From: an uncultured Bacilli bacterium
GTDB taxonomy: Bacteria; Bacillota_I; Bacilli_A; RF39; UBA660
Direction: 5' to 3'
NCBI GenBank assembly: GCA_947625365.1
Contig: CANQNZ010000001.1
Coordinates: 1-35,322, forward strand
DNA length: 35,322 nt
This document shows positions 4,946 to 29,926 of this stretch, in pieces. A program made the position numbers and the translations under genes. The notes under the pieces are model-generated. The model saw nothing but the letters and a program-made list of their open reading frames with translations. It did not search any database and was not told the origin of the DNA. Position 1 is the stretch's first letter; each line of letters opens with the position of its first letter.

Positions 4946-5368
4946 TTATTTTCGAACTAAATAAGCTTTTCCGGAATTTATTTGGGTAATTAAAGATGAA
5001 ATTAATCCTCTAAGTTCTTCTTTGTTATTAGTTTGATTAATTATTGGATAGCCAGAATATAGCAAAGTATTTAACTCTTCATCTGTTGCTTGCATAGCAG
5101 AATAGATAATAGTTGGTATGTGAACTTCTTTTGCAATTAAACTTTCTACTAATCTTAAACCAATTTTATCATTATAAATATTAGGGTTTGATAAAGATAA
5201 AGAAACATCTAAATCTAAACATATAAAATCATATGTATCATTATCTATGCTTTTTTCAGCATCAACAACATTTTTAACTGTAGTTATATCATGCACTTCA
5301 TTAATATATAAAGTTGATATTATTTCACCAATCTTATAATAACTATCAGAAACGACTAAAGCTTTCAT
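4946..5368 (-). CDS. Stand-alone CheY-like receiver-fold protein (degenerate)
   Basis: 140 aa. The pattern fits a receiver fold: beta1 MKALVVSD, beta3 with a candidate acceptor Asp (DFICLDLDV), and beta4 PTIIYSA. The conserved Lys-Pro of beta5 is not evident and there is no output domain. Confidence 0.35.
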   Translation of the reverse strand: MKALVVSDSYYKIGEIISTLYINEVHDITTVKNVVDAEKSIDNDTYDFICLDLDVSLSLSNPNIYNDKIGLRLVESLIAKEVHIPTIIYSAMQATDEELNTLLYSGYPIINQTNNKEELRGLISSLITQINSGKAYLVRK

Positions 5369-5479
5369 AATATAATAGCTCCTTTCAGCTCCAATATCAT
5401 ACCTTAAAATTTCTAAAAATACAACATAAAATCGTTAGACAAATAAATGTTTGTGTTATATAATTAAGATGGTGTTAAA

Positions 5480-7468
5480 ATGGAGATAGAAAATTTAAAA
5501 GGAGTAGGTCCTAAAACTTTAGATGCTTTACATAAATTAGAAATCTATAATATTAATGATTTATTATCATATTATCCATTTCGTTATCAAGTTTTAAAAC
5601 CAGAAGTTTTAGATAATAGCGATAATGTAAAGACTATTGTAGGTAAAGTAGAAAGTGCACCTAGAGTTATATTTATTAAAAGAAATTTAAATCGTTTAGC
5701 TTTTCGATTTATAACTGAAGGAAAGATAATAAATGTATCTATTTTTAATCGTGGCTTTTTAAAAGATAAAATTCAAATAGGCTCAGATTTAACTTTGATA
5801 GGTAAATATAATAGTAAAACTAATAACTTTGCAGCTAGTGATATTCGTTTATTTAAATTAGAAGAAACACTGATAGAACCTAAATATCATTTAATTAAAG
5901 AAATGAAATCAAATTTATTTTCTAAATTAATGGGGCAAGCTTTAAATAGTAATGAACCAGTAGTGGATTATATTCCTTTATATTTAAATAAAACTTATAA
6001 ATTTTTATCTAAATGGGAGGCATTAAAAGAAATTCATCATCCTACTAATCTTACCTTGTTAAAAAAAGCTAAACTAAAATTTATATATGAAGAATTATTT
6101 ATATTTATGTTTAAAATAAATTATTTAAAATATAAAAAATCTTTAGAACATGATTTTTTGAAAAGAACGAATAAAGAAAAAGAAGTATTAGATTTTACTA
6201 AGAATTTACCTTTTTCTTTAACTAAAGATCAAGAAAAGGCTACTCAGGATATTTTAAATGATTATATTGCGCCCAAAAGAATGAACCGCTTAGTTTTAGG
6301 TGATGTAGGAAGTGGTAAAACAATTGTAGCTTTTATTGCTATTTATGCTAATTATTTAGATAATTATCAAAGTGTTCTTATGGCGCCAACGGAGATTTTA
6401 GCAAAACAACATTATGAAAATATAATTAAAATAATGGCAAATTATGATATTAAAGTAAAACTTTTAATTGGTAGCATGAAAAAGAAGGAAAAACAGCAAA
6501 TTTTAGAGGAAGTAAAAGAGCAGAAAATTGATGTTTTAATTGGAACCCATGCGGTTTTGAATGAAAATTTGGTTTTTGCTAATTTAGGATTAGTAATAAC
6601 GGATGAACAACATCGTTTTGGAGTTAATCAAAGAAGTAGCTTGCAAAATAAAGGACAAAAAGTTGATGTTATTTATTTAAGTGCAACGCCTATTCCTCGT
6701 ACGTATGCTTTAACTTTATATGGGGATATGGATACTTCTTTAATTAAAAGTAAACCTAAAGGACGCCGGCAAGTTATAACTGATATAAAAAAAGAAAGCG
6801 AGCTTAAAGAAGTATTACAAGCAATTTTAACGCAGATAAAATTAGGACATCAGATTTATGTTGTTGCTCCTTCTATTTTAGATAATGAAGATAATGAACT
6901 GGAAAACGTAAATTCTTTAAAAGAAAAATTTAATCAAGCCTTTAAAGGATTAATTAAAATAGGGGTTTTACATGGGAAGCAAAAACCGGCGGAAAAAGAA
7001 AAGATTATGCAAGATTTTGCAGAAAACAAATATAATATTTTAATCTCCACTACAGTTATTGAAGTAGGTATTGATGTCGCTAATGCGACAATGATGGTAG
7101 TCTTTAATGCGGAGCGTTTTGGCCTTGCTACTTTGCACCAGTTAAGAGGGAGAGTAGGACGAAGCAATTTAGATAGTTATTGCTATTTAATAAGTAATTA
7201 TGAAAAAGAAAGATTGCAAGTATTAAAAGAAAGTAATGATGGTTTTTATATTAGTCAAAAAGATTTTGAATTGCGAGGAGAAGGAGATTTATTTGGTTCT
7301 AAACAAAGTGGAGATATGAGTTTTAAAATTGCTAATTTACAAAGGGATTATAAGATTTTATTGCAAGTAAAAAAGGACTCTTTAGAATATTTACAGGAAT
7401 TATTAAAAGGAAATACGCATAGTTCTTATTACGACCAAATAATTAAGAAAATAGATTTTATTGATTAA
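5480..7468 (+). CDS. recG: ATP-dependent DNA helicase RecG
   Basis: 662 aa. Walker A GDVGSGKT, DEQH box (ITDEQHRFG), helicase motif VI QLRGRVGRS, and an N-terminal wedge-domain region. Confidence 0.93.
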   Translation: MEIENLKGVGPKTLDALHKLEIYNINDLLSYYPFRYQVLKPEVLDNSDNVKTIVGKVESAPRVIFIKRNLNRLAFRFITEGKIINVSIFNRGFLKDKIQIGSDLTLIGKYNSKTNNFAASDIRLFKLEETLIEPKYHLIKEMKSNLFSKLMGQALNSNEPVVDYIPLYLNKTYKFLSKWEALKEIHHPTNLTLLKKAKLKFIYEELFIFMFKINYLKYKKSLEHDFLKRTNKEKEVLDFTKNLPFSLTKDQEKATQDILNDYIAPKRMNRLVLGDVGSGKTIVAFIAIYANYLDNYQSVLMAPTEILAKQHYENIIKIMANYDIKVKLLIGSMKKKEKQQILEEVKEQKIDVLIGTHAVLNENLVFANLGLVITDEQHRFGVNQRSSLQNKGQKVDVIYLSATPIPRTYALTLYGDMDTSLIKSKPKGRRQVITDIKKESELKEVLQAILTQIKLGHQIYVVAPSILDNEDNELENVNSLKEKFNQAFKGLIKIGVLHGKQKPAEKEKIMQDFAENKYNILISTTVIEVGIDVANATMMVVFNAERFGLATLHQLRGRVGRSNLDSYCYLISNYEKERLQVLKESNDGFYISQKDFELRGEGDLFGSKQSGDMSFKIANLQRDYKILLQVKKDSLEYLQELLKGNTHSSYYDQIIKKIDFID

Positions 7469-23366: not shown

Positions 23367-24170
23367 ATGTTAATATATAATGAAGGTCAAACTTTAGATA
23401 CTAAAGAAATGAAATTATTAGGTGGAAATGGCGAAGGCATATTTTATGCCGGGGAAAGTGTAATAAAAGTTTACGATGATGCTCCTAAAAAGAGGTTATT
23501 AGATGAAAATGATGTTAATTATTTAGCTAAAATAAAAACATTAAGAATATTACTTCCTAAAAATCCTATTTATGTTATGGAAAATGGCCAGAAAATATTT
23601 AAAGGGTACGCTCGTCATCAATATATTCAAAATTGTATACCTTTAAGTGCAATGTGGGAAACATTACCAGAAAAATTAGAAGAAGAAGGAAAATATATAG
23701 AAGAGGATGTGGAAATATTAACGGAAAATAATGTGAAATTACATGATTTAGCGGTTAGAGATAATCTTTTATATAATGGTAATCTATACTTTTGTGACCC
23801 AAGCACTTTTACAATAAATAGTGATACTAAAGTGACAAACAATAATAAGGAAGAATTAAAAGAGGCTTTACATTATCATTTGATTTTATTAGGAACAAAT
23901 CCCGAATATTTAGAAGAAGAGTTAGCAAAAATGACCGGGATAGATTATCAACTGTCAGAAGATTTTTATAACTTTTTATTAAATGTTTATGGTAGTGTTT
24001 ATGATATGATAAGTGACTATAGTTATTTTGAATATTTAAATGATATATTAGAGTATTATGGTTCAATTGAAAATTATAAATTAGAACTTTTAGAAAAAGC
24101 GATAGAGGATAGTCGATATTCTAGATATAGCTTTGAAGTTGAAACTTTAGAAAGAATATTACATCGTTAA
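23367..24170 (+). CDS. Protein-kinase-like fold protein (hypothetical); its 3' end is the duplicated attachment-like sequence
   Basis: GNGEGIFYAGESVIKVY resembles a Gly-loop plus VAIK-type Lys. KLHDLAVRDNLLYNGNLYFCDPS resembles an HxD....N catalytic loop followed by a DFG-equivalent Asp. The ATG at 23367 lies 10 nt after GAAAGGA. Confidence 0.4.
   Translation: MLIYNEGQTLDTKEMKLLGGNGEGIFYAGESVIKVYDDAPKKRLLDENDVNYLAKIKTLRILLPKNPIYVMENGQKIFKGYARHQYIQNCIPLSAMWETLPEKLEEEGKYIEEDVEILTENNVKLHDLAVRDNLLYNGNLYFCDPSTFTINSDTKVTNNNKEELKEALHYHLILLGTNPEYLEEELAKMTGIDYQLSEDFYNFLLNVYGSVYDMISDYSYFEYLNDILEYYGSIENYKLELLEKAIEDSRYSRYSFEVETLERILHR
24113..24170 (+). repeat. Direct repeat, left copy (attL-like), 58 bp, forming the last 19 codons plus stop of the kinase-like gene
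   Basis: tcgatattctagatatagctttgaagttgaaaCtttagaaagaatattacatcgttaa is identical to 26450-26507 except for C/T at 24145/26482. Confidence 0.9.
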
Positions 24171-24187
24171 TATTTTTTTTAATACAA

Positions 24188-24220
24188 AATGTTGATTTTT
24201 TCAACATTAATGCATATAAT
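24188..24220 (+). promoter_or_regulatory. Cassette promoter with an overlapping palindromic candidate operator
   Basis: TTGATT (24192-24197), a 17-nt spacer, then TATAAT (24215-24220). A perfect inverted repeat AATGTTGA-ttttt-TCAACATT (24188-24208) covers the -35 element. Confidence 0.6.
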
Positions 24221-24251
24221 ATAAATGACTTTATACGTTGAGGTGGTGTAT

Positions 24252-24593
24252 ATGAAAGAGTTAAATTATAAAAAAATAGGGGAACGGTTAAGAAAACTTA
24301 GAAAATATATGGGCTTAACTCAAAGACAAGTTGCTGAGATTTTGAATGTAGGTAGAGATGCAATTTTAAGAATTGAAAAAGGAGAACGCAAGATTGATTT
24401 GCAAGAATTAATGAGTTTTTCAAAATTGTATAATATAAGTATGGATGAATTAACAGCTGAAGAACATGCTATAAATAGTAGTAATGTTATTTTTGCTAGG
24501 GGATTTAATGAATTAAGTGAAAAGGATAAAAAAGAAATTATTAGTTTAATTGAGTATAAGAATATATTAAAGTCACAAAATAAGGATGACTAA
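24252..24593 (+). CDS. XRE-family helix-turn-helix transcriptional regulator
   Basis: IGERLRKLRKYMGLTQRQVAEILNVGRDAILRIEKGERKIDLQELMSFSKLYNISMDEL is a canonical HTH_3/Cro-C1 fold sequence. The ATG at 24252 follows GAGGTGG. Confidence 0.9.
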   Translation: MKELNYKKIGERLRKLRKYMGLTQRQVAEILNVGRDAILRIEKGERKIDLQELMSFSKLYNISMDELTAEEHAINSSNVIFARGFNELSEKDKKEIISLIEYKNILKSQNKDD

Positions 24594-24594
24594 T

Positions 24595-25992
24595 ATGACA
24601 CCAGAAGATTTAGCCAAAAGAGAATTAGATAAGCTAAAGAAAAGTGGCAAATTAACTTTTCCGATAGACCCCTTTAAAATCCTTCATAATGCTGGTGTAT
24701 ACGTTGTATTAAAAAGTTTTGAAAATTTAGATGGTATTATCATTAATGATGAAGATAACTGTACAATTGTAGGTATTAATTCAAACAGCGGATGGCAAAG
24801 ACAAAGATTTACTGCAGCACATGAGTATTGTCACTTTATAAAAGATTTGAATAAAGAAATTGGAATAACTGACTATATTGAGTGCTTAAAAAAATCAAAT
24901 AAAAAAATTGAAAAATATGCAAACGATTTTGCTGGCTATTTACTTATGCCTACTGACGAATTAAGGACCGTATGTGAACAATACAAAAATAAAAATGGTT
25001 TTATTGATTTTGAAAGCATTACAATTATAGCTGAATATTTTGGTGTTAGCTTTAATTCTTGTTTGAATAGAATTGCTTATGGCTTAAATTTAATAAATGG
25101 TGATATTTCTTATGCATCATTAAGACAAAGAATGAAGGAGTATGGAGTATCAGCAAAAAGACAAGAATTAATAGAAAATAAAATTGATAGCACGTTGCTA
25201 TCTAATGTTGTAAGTTCCATGAGTTTTGCTATGATGGATATTAATAAGTATACTGGTCAAAAGTTTTTGCAAAATTATATTTATAATGATAATAAACTTG
25301 AAGGGGTAGTAATTGATAGGAAACAACTTAATTACATACTTGCCGATTTAAATTTTAATGGCACTGATAGTCAATTTTTTGAAAATGATAGAGAAGAAAT
25401 AGTAATGACACTTGGTAATTTAGAATTACAACGATATGTAATTAACACCAAAGATAACATTTTATTTAGAAACTGTGGACAATTACATTCATTATTATTT
25501 AAATATGTTCCATATCCTGATGATAATGGTAAGTATAGGGATGAAACGGCATTATTAAAAAGAGGTACTATACAACCAGTTCCATATTATGAGATAAATG
25601 ATAGAATTAATGCTCTTGATGAAGAATTACAATTTTTTATGGAAAATATAGAACAATATGAAATAGGAGAGTATATAGAGCAAGTGGCATATTTCACATA
25701 TAAGTTTATTGTTATTCATCCATTTAGAGATGGCAATGGACGTATATCAAGAGCTATAATGAATTGGCTTTTAAGCAAGAAGAAAATCCCTCCAATTTAT
25801 ATTGAACAAAAATGTAGAAAAGAATATTATGATGCATTATCAAAAATAGATTTAGAAGAGAATCCGGTTCCATTTATTATGTTTATTGAAAAAAGAATAA
25901 TTCATACAATGATGGAATTGCATAAATATTTATTTGTCGATGAGATAGATGAAGAAGAAATAAATGAGGAGGCTGAAGTTAATGAAAATTAA
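24595..25992 (+). CDS. ImmA/IrrE-family zinc metallopeptidase fused to a C-terminal Fic (AMPylase) domain
   Basis: HEYCH (nt 24820-24834) together with EKYANDFAGYLLMP matches the COG2856/Peptidase_M78 pattern. HPFRDGNGRISR (nt 25717-25752) is a complete Fic motif HxFx(D/E)GNGRxxR. The start at 24595 lies 2 nt after the XRE stop and 8 nt after AAGGA; an alternative ATG at 24586 exists. Confidence 0.85.
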   Translation: MTPEDLAKRELDKLKKSGKLTFPIDPFKILHNAGVYVVLKSFENLDGIIINDEDNCTIVGINSNSGWQRQRFTAAHEYCHFIKDLNKEIGITDYIECLKKSNKKIEKYANDFAGYLLMPTDELRTVCEQYKNKNGFIDFESITIIAEYFGVSFNSCLNRIAYGLNLINGDISYASLRQRMKEYGVSAKRQELIENKIDSTLLSNVVSSMSFAMMDINKYTGQKFLQNYIYNDNKLEGVVIDRKQLNYILADLNFNGTDSQFFENDREEIVMTLGNLELQRYVINTKDNILFRNCGQLHSLLFKYVPYPDDNGKYRDETALLKRGTIQPVPYYEINDRINALDEELQFFMENIEQYEIGEYIEQVAYFTYKFIVIHPFRDGNGRISRAIMNWLLSKKKIPPIYIEQKCRKEYYDALSKIDLEENPVPFIMFIEKRIIHTMMELHKYLFVDEIDEEEINEEAEVNEN

Positions 25993-26401
25993 TAAGTGGC
26001 CTAGAAATAATTATACAGGCCCAGGAGGCGGACTATATACAGGCCCAGGAGGTGGATTATATACGGGTCCAGGAGGTGGTGCATCTACAGGCCCAGGAGG
26101 TGGATTATATACAGGTCCAGGAGGTGGATTATATACAGGCCCGGGAGGCGGACTATATACAGGCCCAGGAGGTGGATTATAAACAGGTCCGGGAGGTGGA
26201 TTATATACGGGTCCAGGAGGTGGACTATATACAGGTCCAGGAGGTGGATTATACACCGGTCCAAGTGGCGGAGCATATAATGGCCCGGGAGAATCATATA
26301 TGAGTAATATTCCGCCATGGCCAGTATTTGTAAAAGAATTAGAAAAAAGAGGTTATAAAAAAGAGGCAGATTTAATTAAAAAATATCATAAATGTGATTA
26401 G
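25982..26401 (+). pseudogene. Gly/Pro/Tyr-rich repeat protein (YTGPGGGL x11) with a 40-aa non-repeat C-terminal tail; reading frame interrupted by one in-frame TAA at 26180-26182
   Basis: GAGGAGG Shine-Dalgarno sequence 8 nt upstream. The ATG at 25982 overlaps the Fic gene stop by 11 nt. The same frame continues after the TAA through four more repeat units to ...[30 protein letters not shown] and a TAG at 26399-26401. As written, it yields a 66-aa product. Confidence 0.6.
26012..26275 (+). repeat. Tandem 24-nt coding repeat, 11 units (plus a degenerate 12th)
   Basis: Unit consensus tatacaggYccaggaggtggaYta. Units 2 and 7 are identical, as are units 5 and 10. Local GC is about 50%, against about 30% in the flanks. 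Confidence 0.95.
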
Positions 26402-26449
26402 AAAATGTTGTTATCATTAATCTTTTTATGTTGTAATAATCAAGAGTAA

Positions 26450-26507
26450 TCGATATTCTAGATATAGCTTTGAAGTTGAAATTTTAGAAAGAATATTACA
26501 TCGTTAA
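26450..26507 (+). repeat. Direct repeat, right copy (attR-like); orphan 3' fragment of the kinase-like gene
   Basis: 57/58 match to 24113-24170. In the cognate frame, the nearest upstream in-frame stop is at 26418-26420 and there is no start codon. Confidence 0.9.
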
Positions 26508-26513
26508 AAAAGA

Positions 26514-26542
26514 TTGAATATTTAGCTTTTATCGCATATAAT
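26514..26542 (+). promoter_or_regulatory. Sigma-A type promoter of the leuS leader
   Basis: TTGAAT (26514-26519), a 17-nt spacer, then TATAAT (26537-26542). Confidence 0.65.
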
Positions 26543-26548
26543 ATAGAC

Positions 26549-26741
26549 AAGCGATGAAAAAAGAGTAGTAGAATAAGAATTATTTTTAGAAAGCTAGTGG
26601 TTGATGAAAACTAGTAATAAGATTATTTGAACTTGCTTTTGGATGTGATGGGTCATCTCCCTTATGGATTTTAAGCTAGTAATACTAGGAACTTTAGGTG
26701 GTACCACGTTTAAATACGTCCTTTAGAGGATGTGTTTTTTT
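26549..26741 (+). promoter_or_regulatory. T-box riboswitch leader (tRNA-Leu responsive)
   Basis: Stem I elements GCGATGA...AGAGTAGTA, an AGAAAG bulge, and distal stem CTAGT-ggttgatgaaa-ACTAG. Candidate specifier GAA-CUU-G, with CUU (Leu) at 26632-26634. Conserved T-box sequence AGGTGGTACCACG at 26696-26708. Terminator ACGTCCT-ttag-AGGATGT plus a U-run at 26716-26741. Confidence 0.8.
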
Positions 26742-26760
26742 ATTAGAAAGAGGTTTTATA

Positions 26761-27153
26761 ATGTTATATAATTTAATATTTTTTCTAATTTTATTTGTTA
26801 TAGCTTGGATTATTTTTTCGCTCATTAATAGAGCTAAAATAAATACTAATAAGAAATACCAGATGGCGGAGGTAAAATATTTAATTAGTCGTTTTACTAT
26901 TGATAAAAAGAAAATAGATTATAAGAAGCTTATTAGATTAATTAATATAGCTAATGCTTTTATTATTTCTTTTGTTTGTACAATAATATCCGTACTACCA
27001 TTAAAGTTCTTATGGCAAATGTTAATTGGTTTTGTTTTATTATTTGTTTTAATGTTTTTATGTTATGAATTATTAGGAATATATGCAGTAAAGAAAGGTT
27101 GGAAGAAAAATGGAAAGAGATTATCAAAAAATAGAGAAAAAGTGGCAAAATAG
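26761..27153 (+). CDS. Small three-TM membrane protein (130 aa) lying between the T-box and leuS
   Basis: AGAAAGAGG Shine-Dalgarno sequence 5 nt before the ATG at 26761. Three hydrophobic helices and a Lys-rich tail. Its 3' end overlaps the leuS start by 44 nt in another frame. The track start at 26698 would lie inside the T-box terminator. Confidence 0.55.
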   Translation: MLYNLIFFLILFVIAWIIFSLINRAKINTNKKYQMAEVKYLISRFTIDKKKIDYKKLIRLINIANAFIISFVCTIISVLPLKFLWQMLIGFVLLFVLMFLCYELLGIYAVKKGWKKNGKRLSKNREKVAK

Positions 27154-29926
27154 ATGGGAAGAAAAGGGAGTTTTTAAAGCTATTAATGGTAGTGATAAAC
27201 CACCATATTATATATTAGTAGAATTTCCTTATCCATCAGGTTCTGGTTTGCATGTTGGGCATGTTCGTAGTTATACTGCCCAAGATGCTTTAGCACGAAT
27301 GAAAAGAATGCAAGGGTATAATGTGTTATATCCTATGGGTTGGGACGCTTTTGGAGCTCCAGCGGAAGGGTATGCAATAAAAAATCATATTCATCCTAAA
27401 CAAGCAGTTAAAGAAAATATAGCAACTTTTAAAAAGCAAATGCAATCTTTAGGATTTTCCTTTGATTGGGACCGAGAATTTTCAACTACTGACCCGGAAT
27501 ATTATAAATGGACTCAGTGGCAATTTTTACAATTTTATAAACATGGAATGGCTTATAAGGAAAAAGTGCCAGTAAATTGGTGCGATACATGTAAAACTGT
27601 TTTATCAAATGAAGATGCCGCTGGGGGTGTTTGTGAACGCTGTGGCAATAAAGTTGTTCAAAAAGAAAAATCACAGTGGATGCTTAAAATGGCTAGTTAT
27701 TCAGAGGATTTACTTAAAGGCTTAGATGATACTAACTTTGCCGAAAAAGTAAAACTAGGTCAAATTAACTGGATAGGTAAATCTGTGGGAGCTCATGTTG
27801 ATTTTAAAATAGCAGGTCATGATTTAACCTTTACAGTTTTTACAACGAGATGTGATACTTTATATGGTGCGACTTACTGCGTTTTAGCGCCAGAACATGA
27901 TTATGTTGATATTATTACAACTCCTGATAAAAAAGCAGAAGTCGAGGCGTATAAAAAAGCTTGTGCTTTAAAAAATGATTTAGAAAGAACCGAATTGAAT
28001 AAAGAAAAGACAGGTGTATTTACAGGAGCATATGCAATTAATCCTGTTAATAATAAAGAAATTCCTATTTATATAAGTGATTATGTTTTGGCTACTTATG
28101 GAACGGGAGCTATTATGGCAGTTCCGGCTCATGATGACCGAGACTATGAATTTGCCCAAAAATTTAATATTCCTATTATTCAAGTATTAGAAGAAGTTAC
28201 AGGCACTCCTCATGATAAAGAAGAAAAGAAAAATTCTATTGTTGCGGTAGTTTATGATGAAAAAGAAAATAAATATCTGACTTTAAATTGGGGTAAAAAA
28301 GGTGGTCGCTTATTTATTGGAGGCACTATAAAAGAGGGAGAAACACCACTGGAGTGTGCGCAAAGAGAAATTGCTGAAGAAACAGGTTTTACTTCTTTAG
28401 AGTTTGTAAAAGAATTACCGAAAATAAATCATCATTATTATGCTTATAATAAAGATAAATATTTTAATATTGAAAGTACTGGTTTCTTCTTTAAATTAAA
28501 AGCTAAGAAGCAAGTTGATTTAAATTTAGATGATGATGAAGATTTTAAAGCCGAATGGGTAAGTGAAGATGTTATCTTAAAAGAAGTTAAAGATGAGTTG
28601 CATATGAAAACATATGAATATGCGAAAAATCCAGGAGCTATGACTGGTGATGGTATTCATATTAATTCTGAGCAGTTAAATGGTTTAAATAAAGAAGAAG
28701 CTATAAATAAAATGATTGCTTGGCTTGAGAAAAATCATTGTGGTAAAAAACAAGTAAATTATAAAATGCGCGATTGGATATTCTCTCGTCAAAGATTTTG
28801 GGGGGAACCAATCCCAATGATACATTGTGAAAAATGTGGTTGGGTGCCAATGGATGAAAAAGATTTACCTTTGCTTCTTCCTGATGTGGCTGAGTATGAA
28901 CCAACTGATACAGGCGAAAGTCCTTTGGCTAAAATAACTGATTGGGTAAATACAACTTGTCCAAAATGCGGCGCTCCTGCTAAAAGAGAGACGGATACTA
29001 TGCCTAACTGGGCTGGTTCTTCATGGTATTTCTTAAGATTTATGGATGCTCATAATGATAAAGAATTTGCTTCAATGGATGCAATGAAATATTGGCAAAG
29101 AGTTGATTGGTATAACGGCGGAATGGAACATACGGCTCGTCACTTGCTTTATGCGCGTTTTTGGGTACAATTTCTATATAATATTGGCTTAGTTCCAAAT
29201 AAAGAAATGATTTGGACTAGAGTTTCTCACGGCATGGTTTTAGGTTCTAACAATGAAAAAATGAGTAAATCAAAAGGAAATGTTATTAATCCTGACGATA
29301 TAGTAAAAGAGTATGGCGCCGATACGTTACGTTTATATGAAATGTTTATGGGAAACTATGAACAGGATGCACCATGGAGTACTGACTCTTTAAAAGGCTG
29401 TAAACGTTTTATTGATAAAATCATAAGATTAAAAGATAAGGTTAATGATAAAACCGGTTACAGTAAGGATTTAGAAGCAATAATTCATAAAAGTATTAAA
29501 AAAGTAGAATACGATTTAACACACATGGCTTATAATACAGCTGTTTCGACTCTAATGATTTTAGCTAATGCATATGATGAAAAAGCTGAGCTTACTAAAG
29601 ATGAGTATCATTTATTATTAACATTATTAAATCCAATAGCTCCACATATAACTGAAGAGCTAAACGAAGAATTAGGTTATAAACCATTGACTGAAGAAGC
29701 ATGGCCGAAATACGATGAAGCTAAGCTTATAGATAGCGAAGTAGGAATAGCTATTTCAATAAATGGTAAATTACGTAATACTATTAAAGTACCTATAGAT
29801 AGTTCTAAAGAAACATTAGAAAATTTAGCTAAAAATGATGAAAAAATTCAAAAATATTTAGAAGGTAAAGAGATAGTTAAAGTTATTGTTGTACCTAATA
29901 AAATTGTTAATATAGTAGTAAAATAA
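27110..29926 (+). CDS. leuS: Leucyl-tRNA synthetase carrying an inserted Nudix-hydrolase domain
   Basis: HVGH (the HIGH motif) and KMSKS are present, along with WIGKSVGAHV, VFTTRCDT, GTGAIMAVPAHDDRDYEFA and RDWIFSRQRFWGEPIP. At 938 aa it is longer than the ~800 aa typical of Bacillus-type LeuS. The excess is a ~150-aa block (residues ~361-509) containing GGTIKEGETPLECAQREIAEETGF. Confidence 0.95.
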   Translation: MERDYQKIEKKWQNRWEEKGVFKAINGSDKPPYYILVEFPYPSGSGLHVGHVRSYTAQDALARMKRMQGYNVLYPMGWDAFGAPAEGYAIKNHIHPKQAVKENIATFKKQMQSLGFSFDWDREFSTTDPEYYKWTQWQFLQFYKHGMAYKEKVPVNWCDTCKTVLSNEDAAGGVCERCGNKVVQKEKSQWMLKMASYSEDLLKGLDDTNFAEKVKLGQINWIGKSVGAHVDFKIAGHDLTFTVFTTRCDTLYGATYCVLAPEHDYVDIITTPDKKAEVEAYKKACALKNDLERTELNKEKTGVFTGAYAINPVNNKEIPIYISDYVLATYGTGAIMAVPAHDDRDYEFAQKFNIPIIQVLEEVTGTPHDKEEKKNSIVAVVYDEKENKYLTLNWGKKGGRLFIGGTIKEGETPLECAQREIAEETGFTSLEFVKELPKINHHYYAYNKDKYFNIESTGFFFKLKAKKQVDLNLDDDEDFKAEWVSEDVILKEVKDELHMKTYEYAKNPGAMTGDGIHINSEQLNGLNKEEAINKMIAWLEKNHCGKKQVNYKMRDWIFSRQRFWGEPIPMIHCEKCGWVPMDEKDLPLLLPDVAEYEPTDTGESPLAKITDWVNTTCPKCGAPAKRETDTMPNWAGSSWYFLRFMDAHNDKEFASMDAMKYWQRVDWYNGGMEHTARHLLYARFWVQFLYNIGLVPNKEMIWTRVSHGMVLGSNNEKMSKSKGNVINPDDIVKEYGADTLRLYEMFMGNYEQDAPWSTDSLKGCKRFIDKIIRLKDKVNDKTGYSKDLEAIIHKSIKKVEYDLTHMAYNTAVSTLMILANAYDEKAELTKDEYHLLLTLLNPIAPHITEELNEELGYKPLTEEAWPKYDEAKLIDSEVGIAISINGKLRNTIKVPIDSSKETLENLAKNDEKIQKYLEGKEIVKVIVVPNKIVNIVVK

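Follow-up and report, generated by a model that had tools for sequence, protein, structure and literature searches.

A cassette between a kinase-like gene and leuS

The window analyzed here is the whole of a 35,322-nucleotide contig (35 kb) from the metagenome-assembled genome (MAG) of an uncultured Bacilli bacterium, and the element in question is a 2.3-kb cassette placed between the gene for a kinase-like protein and the transcription unit of leuS. The cassette carries genes for an XRE-family helix-turn-helix (HTH) repressor, a fusion of an M78 metallopeptidase with a Fic domain, and a Gly-rich repeat protein, and it is bracketed by two copies of the 3' end of the kinase-like gene (Table 1). 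Re-alignment confirms the 58-bp direct repeat described in the initial annotation, with positions 24113-24170 identical to 26450-26507 except for a single C/T difference, and the match extends to 61 bp (24110-24170 compared with 26447-26507) with two mismatches. The 58-mer is present in exactly two copies in the window compared with 0.00 expected from 100 dinucleotide-preserving shuffles. The second copy is, as had been described, an orphan gene end without a start codon, and 6 nt separate its end from TTGAAT (26514), the -35 hexamer of the leuS promoter. The 58-mer is not found in the 49 other loci checked (designated by L numbers below) or in the viral collection, and it is therefore not the multi-copy dispersed repeat that the initial annotation had considered as a contrary outcome. 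The repeats and the right tail of the element fold no better than shuffled sequences (z -0.3 to +0.8), which excludes an attC-like (integron cassette) or other hairpin-dependent mechanism.

The empty sites for which the initial annotation had suggested a search are present in L001 and L004/L005, where the stop codon of the kinase-like homologue is placed directly before a AAAAGATTGAAT...TATAAT promoter followed by the T-box, the small open reading frame (ORF) and leuS. The window aligns to L001 as two pieces, 23526-24162 and 26449-27200, that overlap by ~51 bp on L001, and this one stretch of ~51 bp matches both repeat copies and is therefore the signature of a target duplication. The second copy together with the promoter appears to be the ancestral junction, and from these alignments the segment from ~24171 to 26446 is evidently an insertion, placed precisely at the boundary between the kinase-like stop codon and the T-box promoter of leuS. 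By duplicating the 3' end of the kinase-like gene, the insertion left that gene intact. The description of the cassette as lacking a recombinase holds: none of the ORFs of at least 90 amino acids on the contig has a recombinase or transposase domain, and a tblastn search with the family integrase gives no match in the window.

The same kinase-like/leuS junction is occupied in L002 by an unrelated 2.2-kb insert (5181-7380) with a 498-amino acid ORF that has no family match, and a direct repeat was looked for around this insert and not found. The site therefore tolerates insertions. The L002 insert is the sole other occupant, and a larger integrase-bearing element at this site, for which the initial annotation had suggested looking, is present in none of the four related loci. 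A 33-bp tandem duplication of promoter-like sequence is also seen in L002 (5188-5253).

Table 1. Features of the cassette and its flanks, with positions in the window
Feature	Position	Strand	Remarks
Kinase-like target gene	23367..24170	+	ORF of 267 amino acids
Direct repeat, copy 1	24113..24170	+	Last 19 codons and TAA of the ORF 23367-24170, contiguous with the gene
Left arm	24171..24187	+	17 nt; resembles the left flank of L041; missing from the empty site L001
Palindromic operator AATGTTGATTTTTTCAACATT	24188..24220	+	Overlaps the cassette promoter TTGATT-17-TATAAT (24192-24220); conserved in all cassette copies at their left end
XRE-family HTH repressor (CapH-like)	24237..24593	+	Pfam HTH_3 8.4e-13; PADLOC capH 8.4e-12
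M78/ImmA-type (CapP-like) metallopeptidase-Fic fusion	24586..25992	+	Peptidase_M78 2.3e-14; Fic 2e-14; capP 8.9e-26
Gly-rich repeat protein gene	25964..26401	+	GPGGGLYT, 24-nt units, ~11 copies; no Pfam domain
Right tail of the element	26402..26446	+	First ~27 nt common only to L023
Direct repeat, copy 2	26450..26507	+	3'-end fragment; junction with the promoter apparently ancestral, as in L001 and L004
Native downstream unit	26514..27153	+	Promoter, T-box leader and ~130-amino acid membrane ORF; same order in L001, L002 and L004

Relatives of the cassette with and without an integrase

The segment from ~24171-24186 to 26405 (~2.2 kb) has 84.8-91.3% nucleotide identity to cassettes elsewhere (L009/L010/L016, L011, L013, L015-L023, L024-L039 and L040-L049), and among uncultured gut Bacilli the cassette occupies at least nine further chromosomal contexts. 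The housekeeping genes recG and PFOR, in contrast, are ~66% identical between the window and L018. The difference means that the module is accessory and moves horizontally, in agreement with the initial annotation. Its base composition is not anomalous, which is consistent with exchange between related low-GC Bacilli of the gut. Homologues of the M78-Fic protein number 889 at E ≤0.001, many of them encoded on cassette-only contigs of ~2.3 kb. These cassette-only metagenomic contigs span 2.1-2.5 kb, and one protein cluster has 689 members with the longest contig being 2369 bp. The short contigs suggest that assemblies break at the cassette boundaries, with several contexts per sample; no terminal overlap is present on the two that were inspected (L040 and L041). 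The copy in L017 (1-4800) is placed beside phage-like genes comprising repeated tail-fiber-like ORFs, a holin-like ORF and a 334-amino acid amidase-like ORF, and it may also ride on a prophage end.

At most loci a terminator hairpin and then a convergent gene for a tyrosine integrase (PF00589, 3.9e-28) come after the cassette, and the majority of these integrase-linked copies are located after a DUF7695 zinc-ribbon gene downstream of recG. Upstream of the operator, the integrase-linked copies have in common a left arm of ~45 nt. Only L018 and L028 have a full-length integrase; elsewhere it is shortened by varying amounts from its 5' end, often beside restriction-modification genes or an insertion sequence (IS). 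The cassette family is often tied to a tyrosine integrase, which decays while the cassette stays. No conjugation or mobilization genes were seen. A displaced end of the DUF7695 gene was looked for downstream of the integrase-linked copies and not found, and where the integrase is intact (L018 and L028) a search for flanking attachment (att) repeats gave nothing above shuffles, the single 13-mer detected being rejected as low-complexity sequence inside a gene. Past the truncated or intact integrase in L015, L019 and L028 are restriction-modification genes, DNA methyltransferases, IS fragments or a 670-amino acid protein, and this spot behaves like a defense-island hot spot. In L024 (1-570) a sigma-factor-like gene is joined across 16 bp of identity, TTATGAAGACTTATCT, to the integrase-linked left arm with its last ~30 nt of the DUF7695 gene, and the fusion resembles a product of short-homology recombination.

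A complete decayed element with the cassette and a frameshifted integrase remnant is present in L013 (7399-10219, corresponding to 5411-8231 of L037). In this element a 14-bp direct repeat, TATTAACAAATAAA, spans the stop codon of the upstream gene (911 amino acids), and perfect 14-bp inverted repeats, AATGCAACTTTTTA, are located just inside the direct repeat. Aside from the L013/L014/L037 group, the one locus with AATGCAACTTTTTA is L040, and the window lacks it. The window has neither the left arm nor the inverted repeats of the integrase-linked copies.

Trees calculated from the cassette DNA and from the Fic protein place the window in one clade with L023, L009 and L041. The members of this clade are 91-93% identical in DNA sequence, have neither an integrase nor a remnant of one, and occupy four different sites. 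Repeats were measured where the right junction is present (the window, L009/L010 and L023), the right junction of L041 lying off its contig. The repeat of the window ends at the stop codon of the upstream gene (58 bp, simulated chance 0/1000), that of L009/L010 has two copies 97.8% identical and ends 13 nt past the stop codon (137 bp, simulated chance 0/1000), and that of L023 spans the stop codon and has an rplU leader downstream (15 bp, simulated chance 3/1000). Each time the repeat matches the local upstream gene, and these upstream genes are unrelated to one another by blastp, ruling out homologous upstream genes as a means of homologous targeting across sites. The ends of the element are ragged, with a left arm of 17, 5 or ~0 nt and a right tail of 46, 27 or ~6 nt, and the right junction of L009 contains a 10-bp microhomology, ATTAGAAAAT. 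The repeat copies are ~2% apart compared with a synonymous divergence of 0.27 from L023, which makes the insertion younger than the clade, though not brand new.

The window being a whole MAG contig, and the cassette being one that breaks assemblies elsewhere and is recovered on many cassette-only contigs of 2.2-2.5 kb, the arrangement could be an assembly artifact in which a repeat of many contexts was misthreaded into the kinase-like/leuS junction. This is highly improbable given that the repeat copies differ by one or two bases, that a unique arm and tail join them to the cassette, and that the analogous 137-bp arrangement is found in two separate assemblies, L009 and L010, which differ in repeat-unit number.

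Origin of the flanking repeats

Cis-mobilizable elements (CIMEs) are decayed remnants of ICEs (integrative and conjugative elements) or IMEs (integrative and mobilizable elements) and were first described for ICESt1/ICESt3 at the 3' end of fda in Streptococcus thermophilus. Compared with the definition of a CIME (PMC5704250), the cassette is similar in lacking integration and transfer genes, in having direct repeats that include a gene 3' end, and in having relatives with a tyrosine integrase. It differs in that its repeats are copied from the local target and are specific to the site in both sequence and length, in the absence of conserved att arms, in its ragged ends, and in that no cognate integrase-bearing element is known for the kinase-like/leuS site. 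A true CIME would have arisen from a tyrosine-recombinase element that entered the 3' end of the kinase-like gene, with the 58-mers as attL and attR, and that later lost its integrase and arms to leave a remnant mobilizable in trans. The repeated gene 3' end is the classic signature of such an event, the cassette relatives adjoin a tyrosine integrase, and L013/L037, with its repeat over the stop codon, inverted repeats and integrase remnant, is a convincing decayed element of this kind. However, the repeats change from site to site within the clade, the 58-mer is confined to the window among the loci compared, the arm and inverted repeats of the integrase-linked copies are missing from it, the loci with an intact integrase have no flanking repeat at all, and there is no integrase on the contig or at the same junction in the related loci. 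We regard an origin as a true CIME as unlikely. The insertion, the mobility and the integrase-bearing kin that the initial annotation had combined under this name all stand, the intact integrases being those of L018 and L028, and decay is probable, whereas the att sites are not supported, and neither is its account of a gene end regenerated from element sequence, as the repeats copy local genes and the 58-mer is carried by none of the other cassette copies checked.

The different target sequences, the ragged ends and the missing arms speak against a site-specific recombinase with att sites and also against a transposase with defined ends. Judged from these comparisons, the 58-mers appear not to be conserved att sites of a site-specific system. 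The explanation that we lean toward is that they are a duplication of the target and that the cassette was joined to it by host recombination that is not site-specific. Two routes can be envisaged. A cassette-bearing fragment might be incorporated by illegitimate or microhomology joining, or a circle carrying the local gene end after aberrant excision, as in lambda-dgal, might enter by a Campbell-type RecA crossover. The lambda-dgal/Campbell precedent predicts an integrase-less element flanked by repeats of a neighboring gene after the RecA crossover and predicts microhomology at an internal junction, as seen in L009. In a gene-dense genome the survivors would be those insertions in which the upstream 3' end and the downstream promoter are both preserved, which a duplication achieves, and such a filter would explain why the insertions are found just past stop codons and with duplication rather than deletion of the target. 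The 58-bp repeats would in turn permit precise RecA-mediated loss of the cassette.

Several points weigh against this explanation. Insertions formed by illegitimate recombination delete target DNA more often than they duplicate it, and a target duplication of 58-137 bp is, to our knowledge, not documented as typical of the process. The Campbell route differs from the precedent in that the precursor element it requires at the same site is not observed, no trace of an earlier occupant being present. The empty sites come from distant relatives and not from alleles of the same species, and the 14-15-bp repeats of L013, L022 and L023 have the size of a tyrosine recombinase core. In the window, AAAATGTTG is present at each end of the cassette (24180-24188 and 26402-26410), a possible sign of a specific site; it was rejected as a recombination core, since it is not conserved at the right end of the sister copies and is more likely an operator half-site. 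The functional model of the XRE, M78 and Fic domains set out below is one that we infer from domain homology alone.

A dedicated enzyme acting in trans, either similar to that of IS1634/IS1549 or a new activity possibly tied to the cassette proteins, could also produce long target duplications of variable length. That a single clade has repeats of 15, 58 and 137 bp at three independent sites, with the insertions always just past a stop codon, is consistent with such an enzyme, and IS1549/IS1634 provide a precedent with direct repeats of 8-514 bp by a mechanism that is unexplained (PMC2266710). The likeness is limited to the long, variable direct repeats of target DNA, as these insertion sequences have a DDE transposase and defined ends and the cassette has neither. 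The ends of the cassette are not conserved between copies and lack terminal inverted repeats, no transposase is encoded on the contig, and the repeats have no special hairpin structure (z ~0). We consider this possibility very doubtful. A broader proposal, that the integrase-free lineage spreads by an undescribed mode of mobility that lands directly after stop codons with target duplications of 15-137 bp, is only slightly less doubtful; the activity might be trans-acting or encoded by the cassette, for example by the Gly-rich protein, which is also found on small plasmids and in ICE-like regions.

With the target duplication by host recombination as the favored explanation, the cassette is a mobile island that has decayed, of a fairly ordinary kind apart from its unusual flanking repeat. 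The case would illustrate that a direct repeat of a gene 3' end, which is usually read as an att site, can be a plain target duplication, and that a small selfish or defense cassette can outlive its integrase and still move between genomes. The variable repeats offer a natural system for how islets without a recombinase spread and are lost in gene-dense genomes.

Genes of the cassette and of the target site

The XRE and M78-Fic proteins are closely related in organization to the CapH/CapP, ImmR/ImmA and DdrO/IrrE pairs, sharing an XRE HTH repressor, an M78 (COG2856) metallopeptidase with an HExxH motif, a palindromic operator over the promoter, and an association with mobile elements or defense. 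The operator region forms a DNA hairpin of -6.2 kcal/mol. In CapH/CapP-type pairs a stand-alone protease governs an immune operon of its own and cleaves in response to ssDNA or DNA damage. A difference from these pairs is that the protease is fused to a Fic effector and is not a stand-alone regulator of a separate operon; in addition, the cassette has a third gene, for the Gly-rich repeat protein, and the action of the protease is here a prediction. The XRE protein would repress the operon at the palindromic operator, with AATGTTGAnTTTTTCAACATT as the candidate binding sequence, and the M78 domain would relieve repression on a stress or phage signal in the manner of CapH/CapP and ImmR/ImmA. 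The fused Fic domain would then modify a host target with a toxin- or defense-like outcome.

The translation of the fusion contains both the HEYCH and HPFRDGNGR motifs, and the two domains reside in one polypeptide of 465-468 amino acids in all homologues of at least 440 amino acids. A dN/dS ratio of 0.05-0.18 for the gene indicates purifying selection. The PADLOC matches include PDC-S04 and SoFic as well, and the protein resembles these defense proteins encoded by a single Fic gene (PDC-S04 being a PADLOC candidate) and the Fic/Doc toxins in having the Fic fold with the canonical HPFx(D/E)GN(G/K)R motif. It differs from Fic/Doc and SoFic in its N-terminal M78 domain, and its scores fall far short of the NCBIfam equivalog cut-offs, with 30.9 bits compared with 550 for SoFic. 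The fusion is not found in the viral contig scans, and blastn of the region against phages gives no match. A CapH/CapP-like switch fused to Fic and accompanied by a plasmid-associated Gly-rich protein makes the cassette a candidate toxin or defense module that is abundant in gut Bacilli metagenomes.

The Gly-rich gene of the window contains an in-frame TAA at 26180-26182 where the neighboring units have TAT, leaving 72 amino acids and removing the conserved C-terminal domain, and this is either pseudogenization or an assembly error within the repeats. The gene is intact (131-150 amino acids) in most of the other loci that hold it at full length. It is the only part of the region matched by blastn against plasmids and is not found in the phage collection. 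With its C-terminal domain it is present on plasmids of Enterococcus, Clostridium perfringens, Aerococcus, Acinetobacter and Bacillus (L006, L007 and L008 among the loci). On a C. perfringens plasmid it is placed between YdcP and FtsK/MobT genes, and on the 2.4-kb Weissella plasmid pJY33 it is the sole gene besides rep.

The kinase-like protein upstream has no Pfam or NCBIfam match and only four homologues (40-58% identity) among 5.8 billion proteins. In the PDB, the structures matched by its AlphaFold model (pLDDT 77.8) are all protein kinases (Foldseek probability ~1, TM ~0.4), and the GxGxxG..AxK-like, DLxxxN and FCD motifs are kept across the homologues. The name given to the gene in the initial annotation is acceptable on the basis of the predicted fold and the conserved motifs.

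Downstream of the cassette, the TTGAAT-17-TATAAT promoter located by the promoter scan (26514-26542) drives the T-box leader (26546-26726; Rfam 94.5 bits compared with a gathering score of 93) and leuS. Between the T-box and leuS is the conserved ORF for a membrane protein of ~130 amino acids (26761-27153), which overlaps the leuS start (27110), has no family match, and is arranged in the same way in L001, L002 and L004. The leuS product (27110-29926, 938 amino acids) has a NUDIX domain at amino acids 376-492, inserted after a segment of the editing domain; the insert is absent from the 804-amino acid orthologue of L004 and is also present in that of L002.

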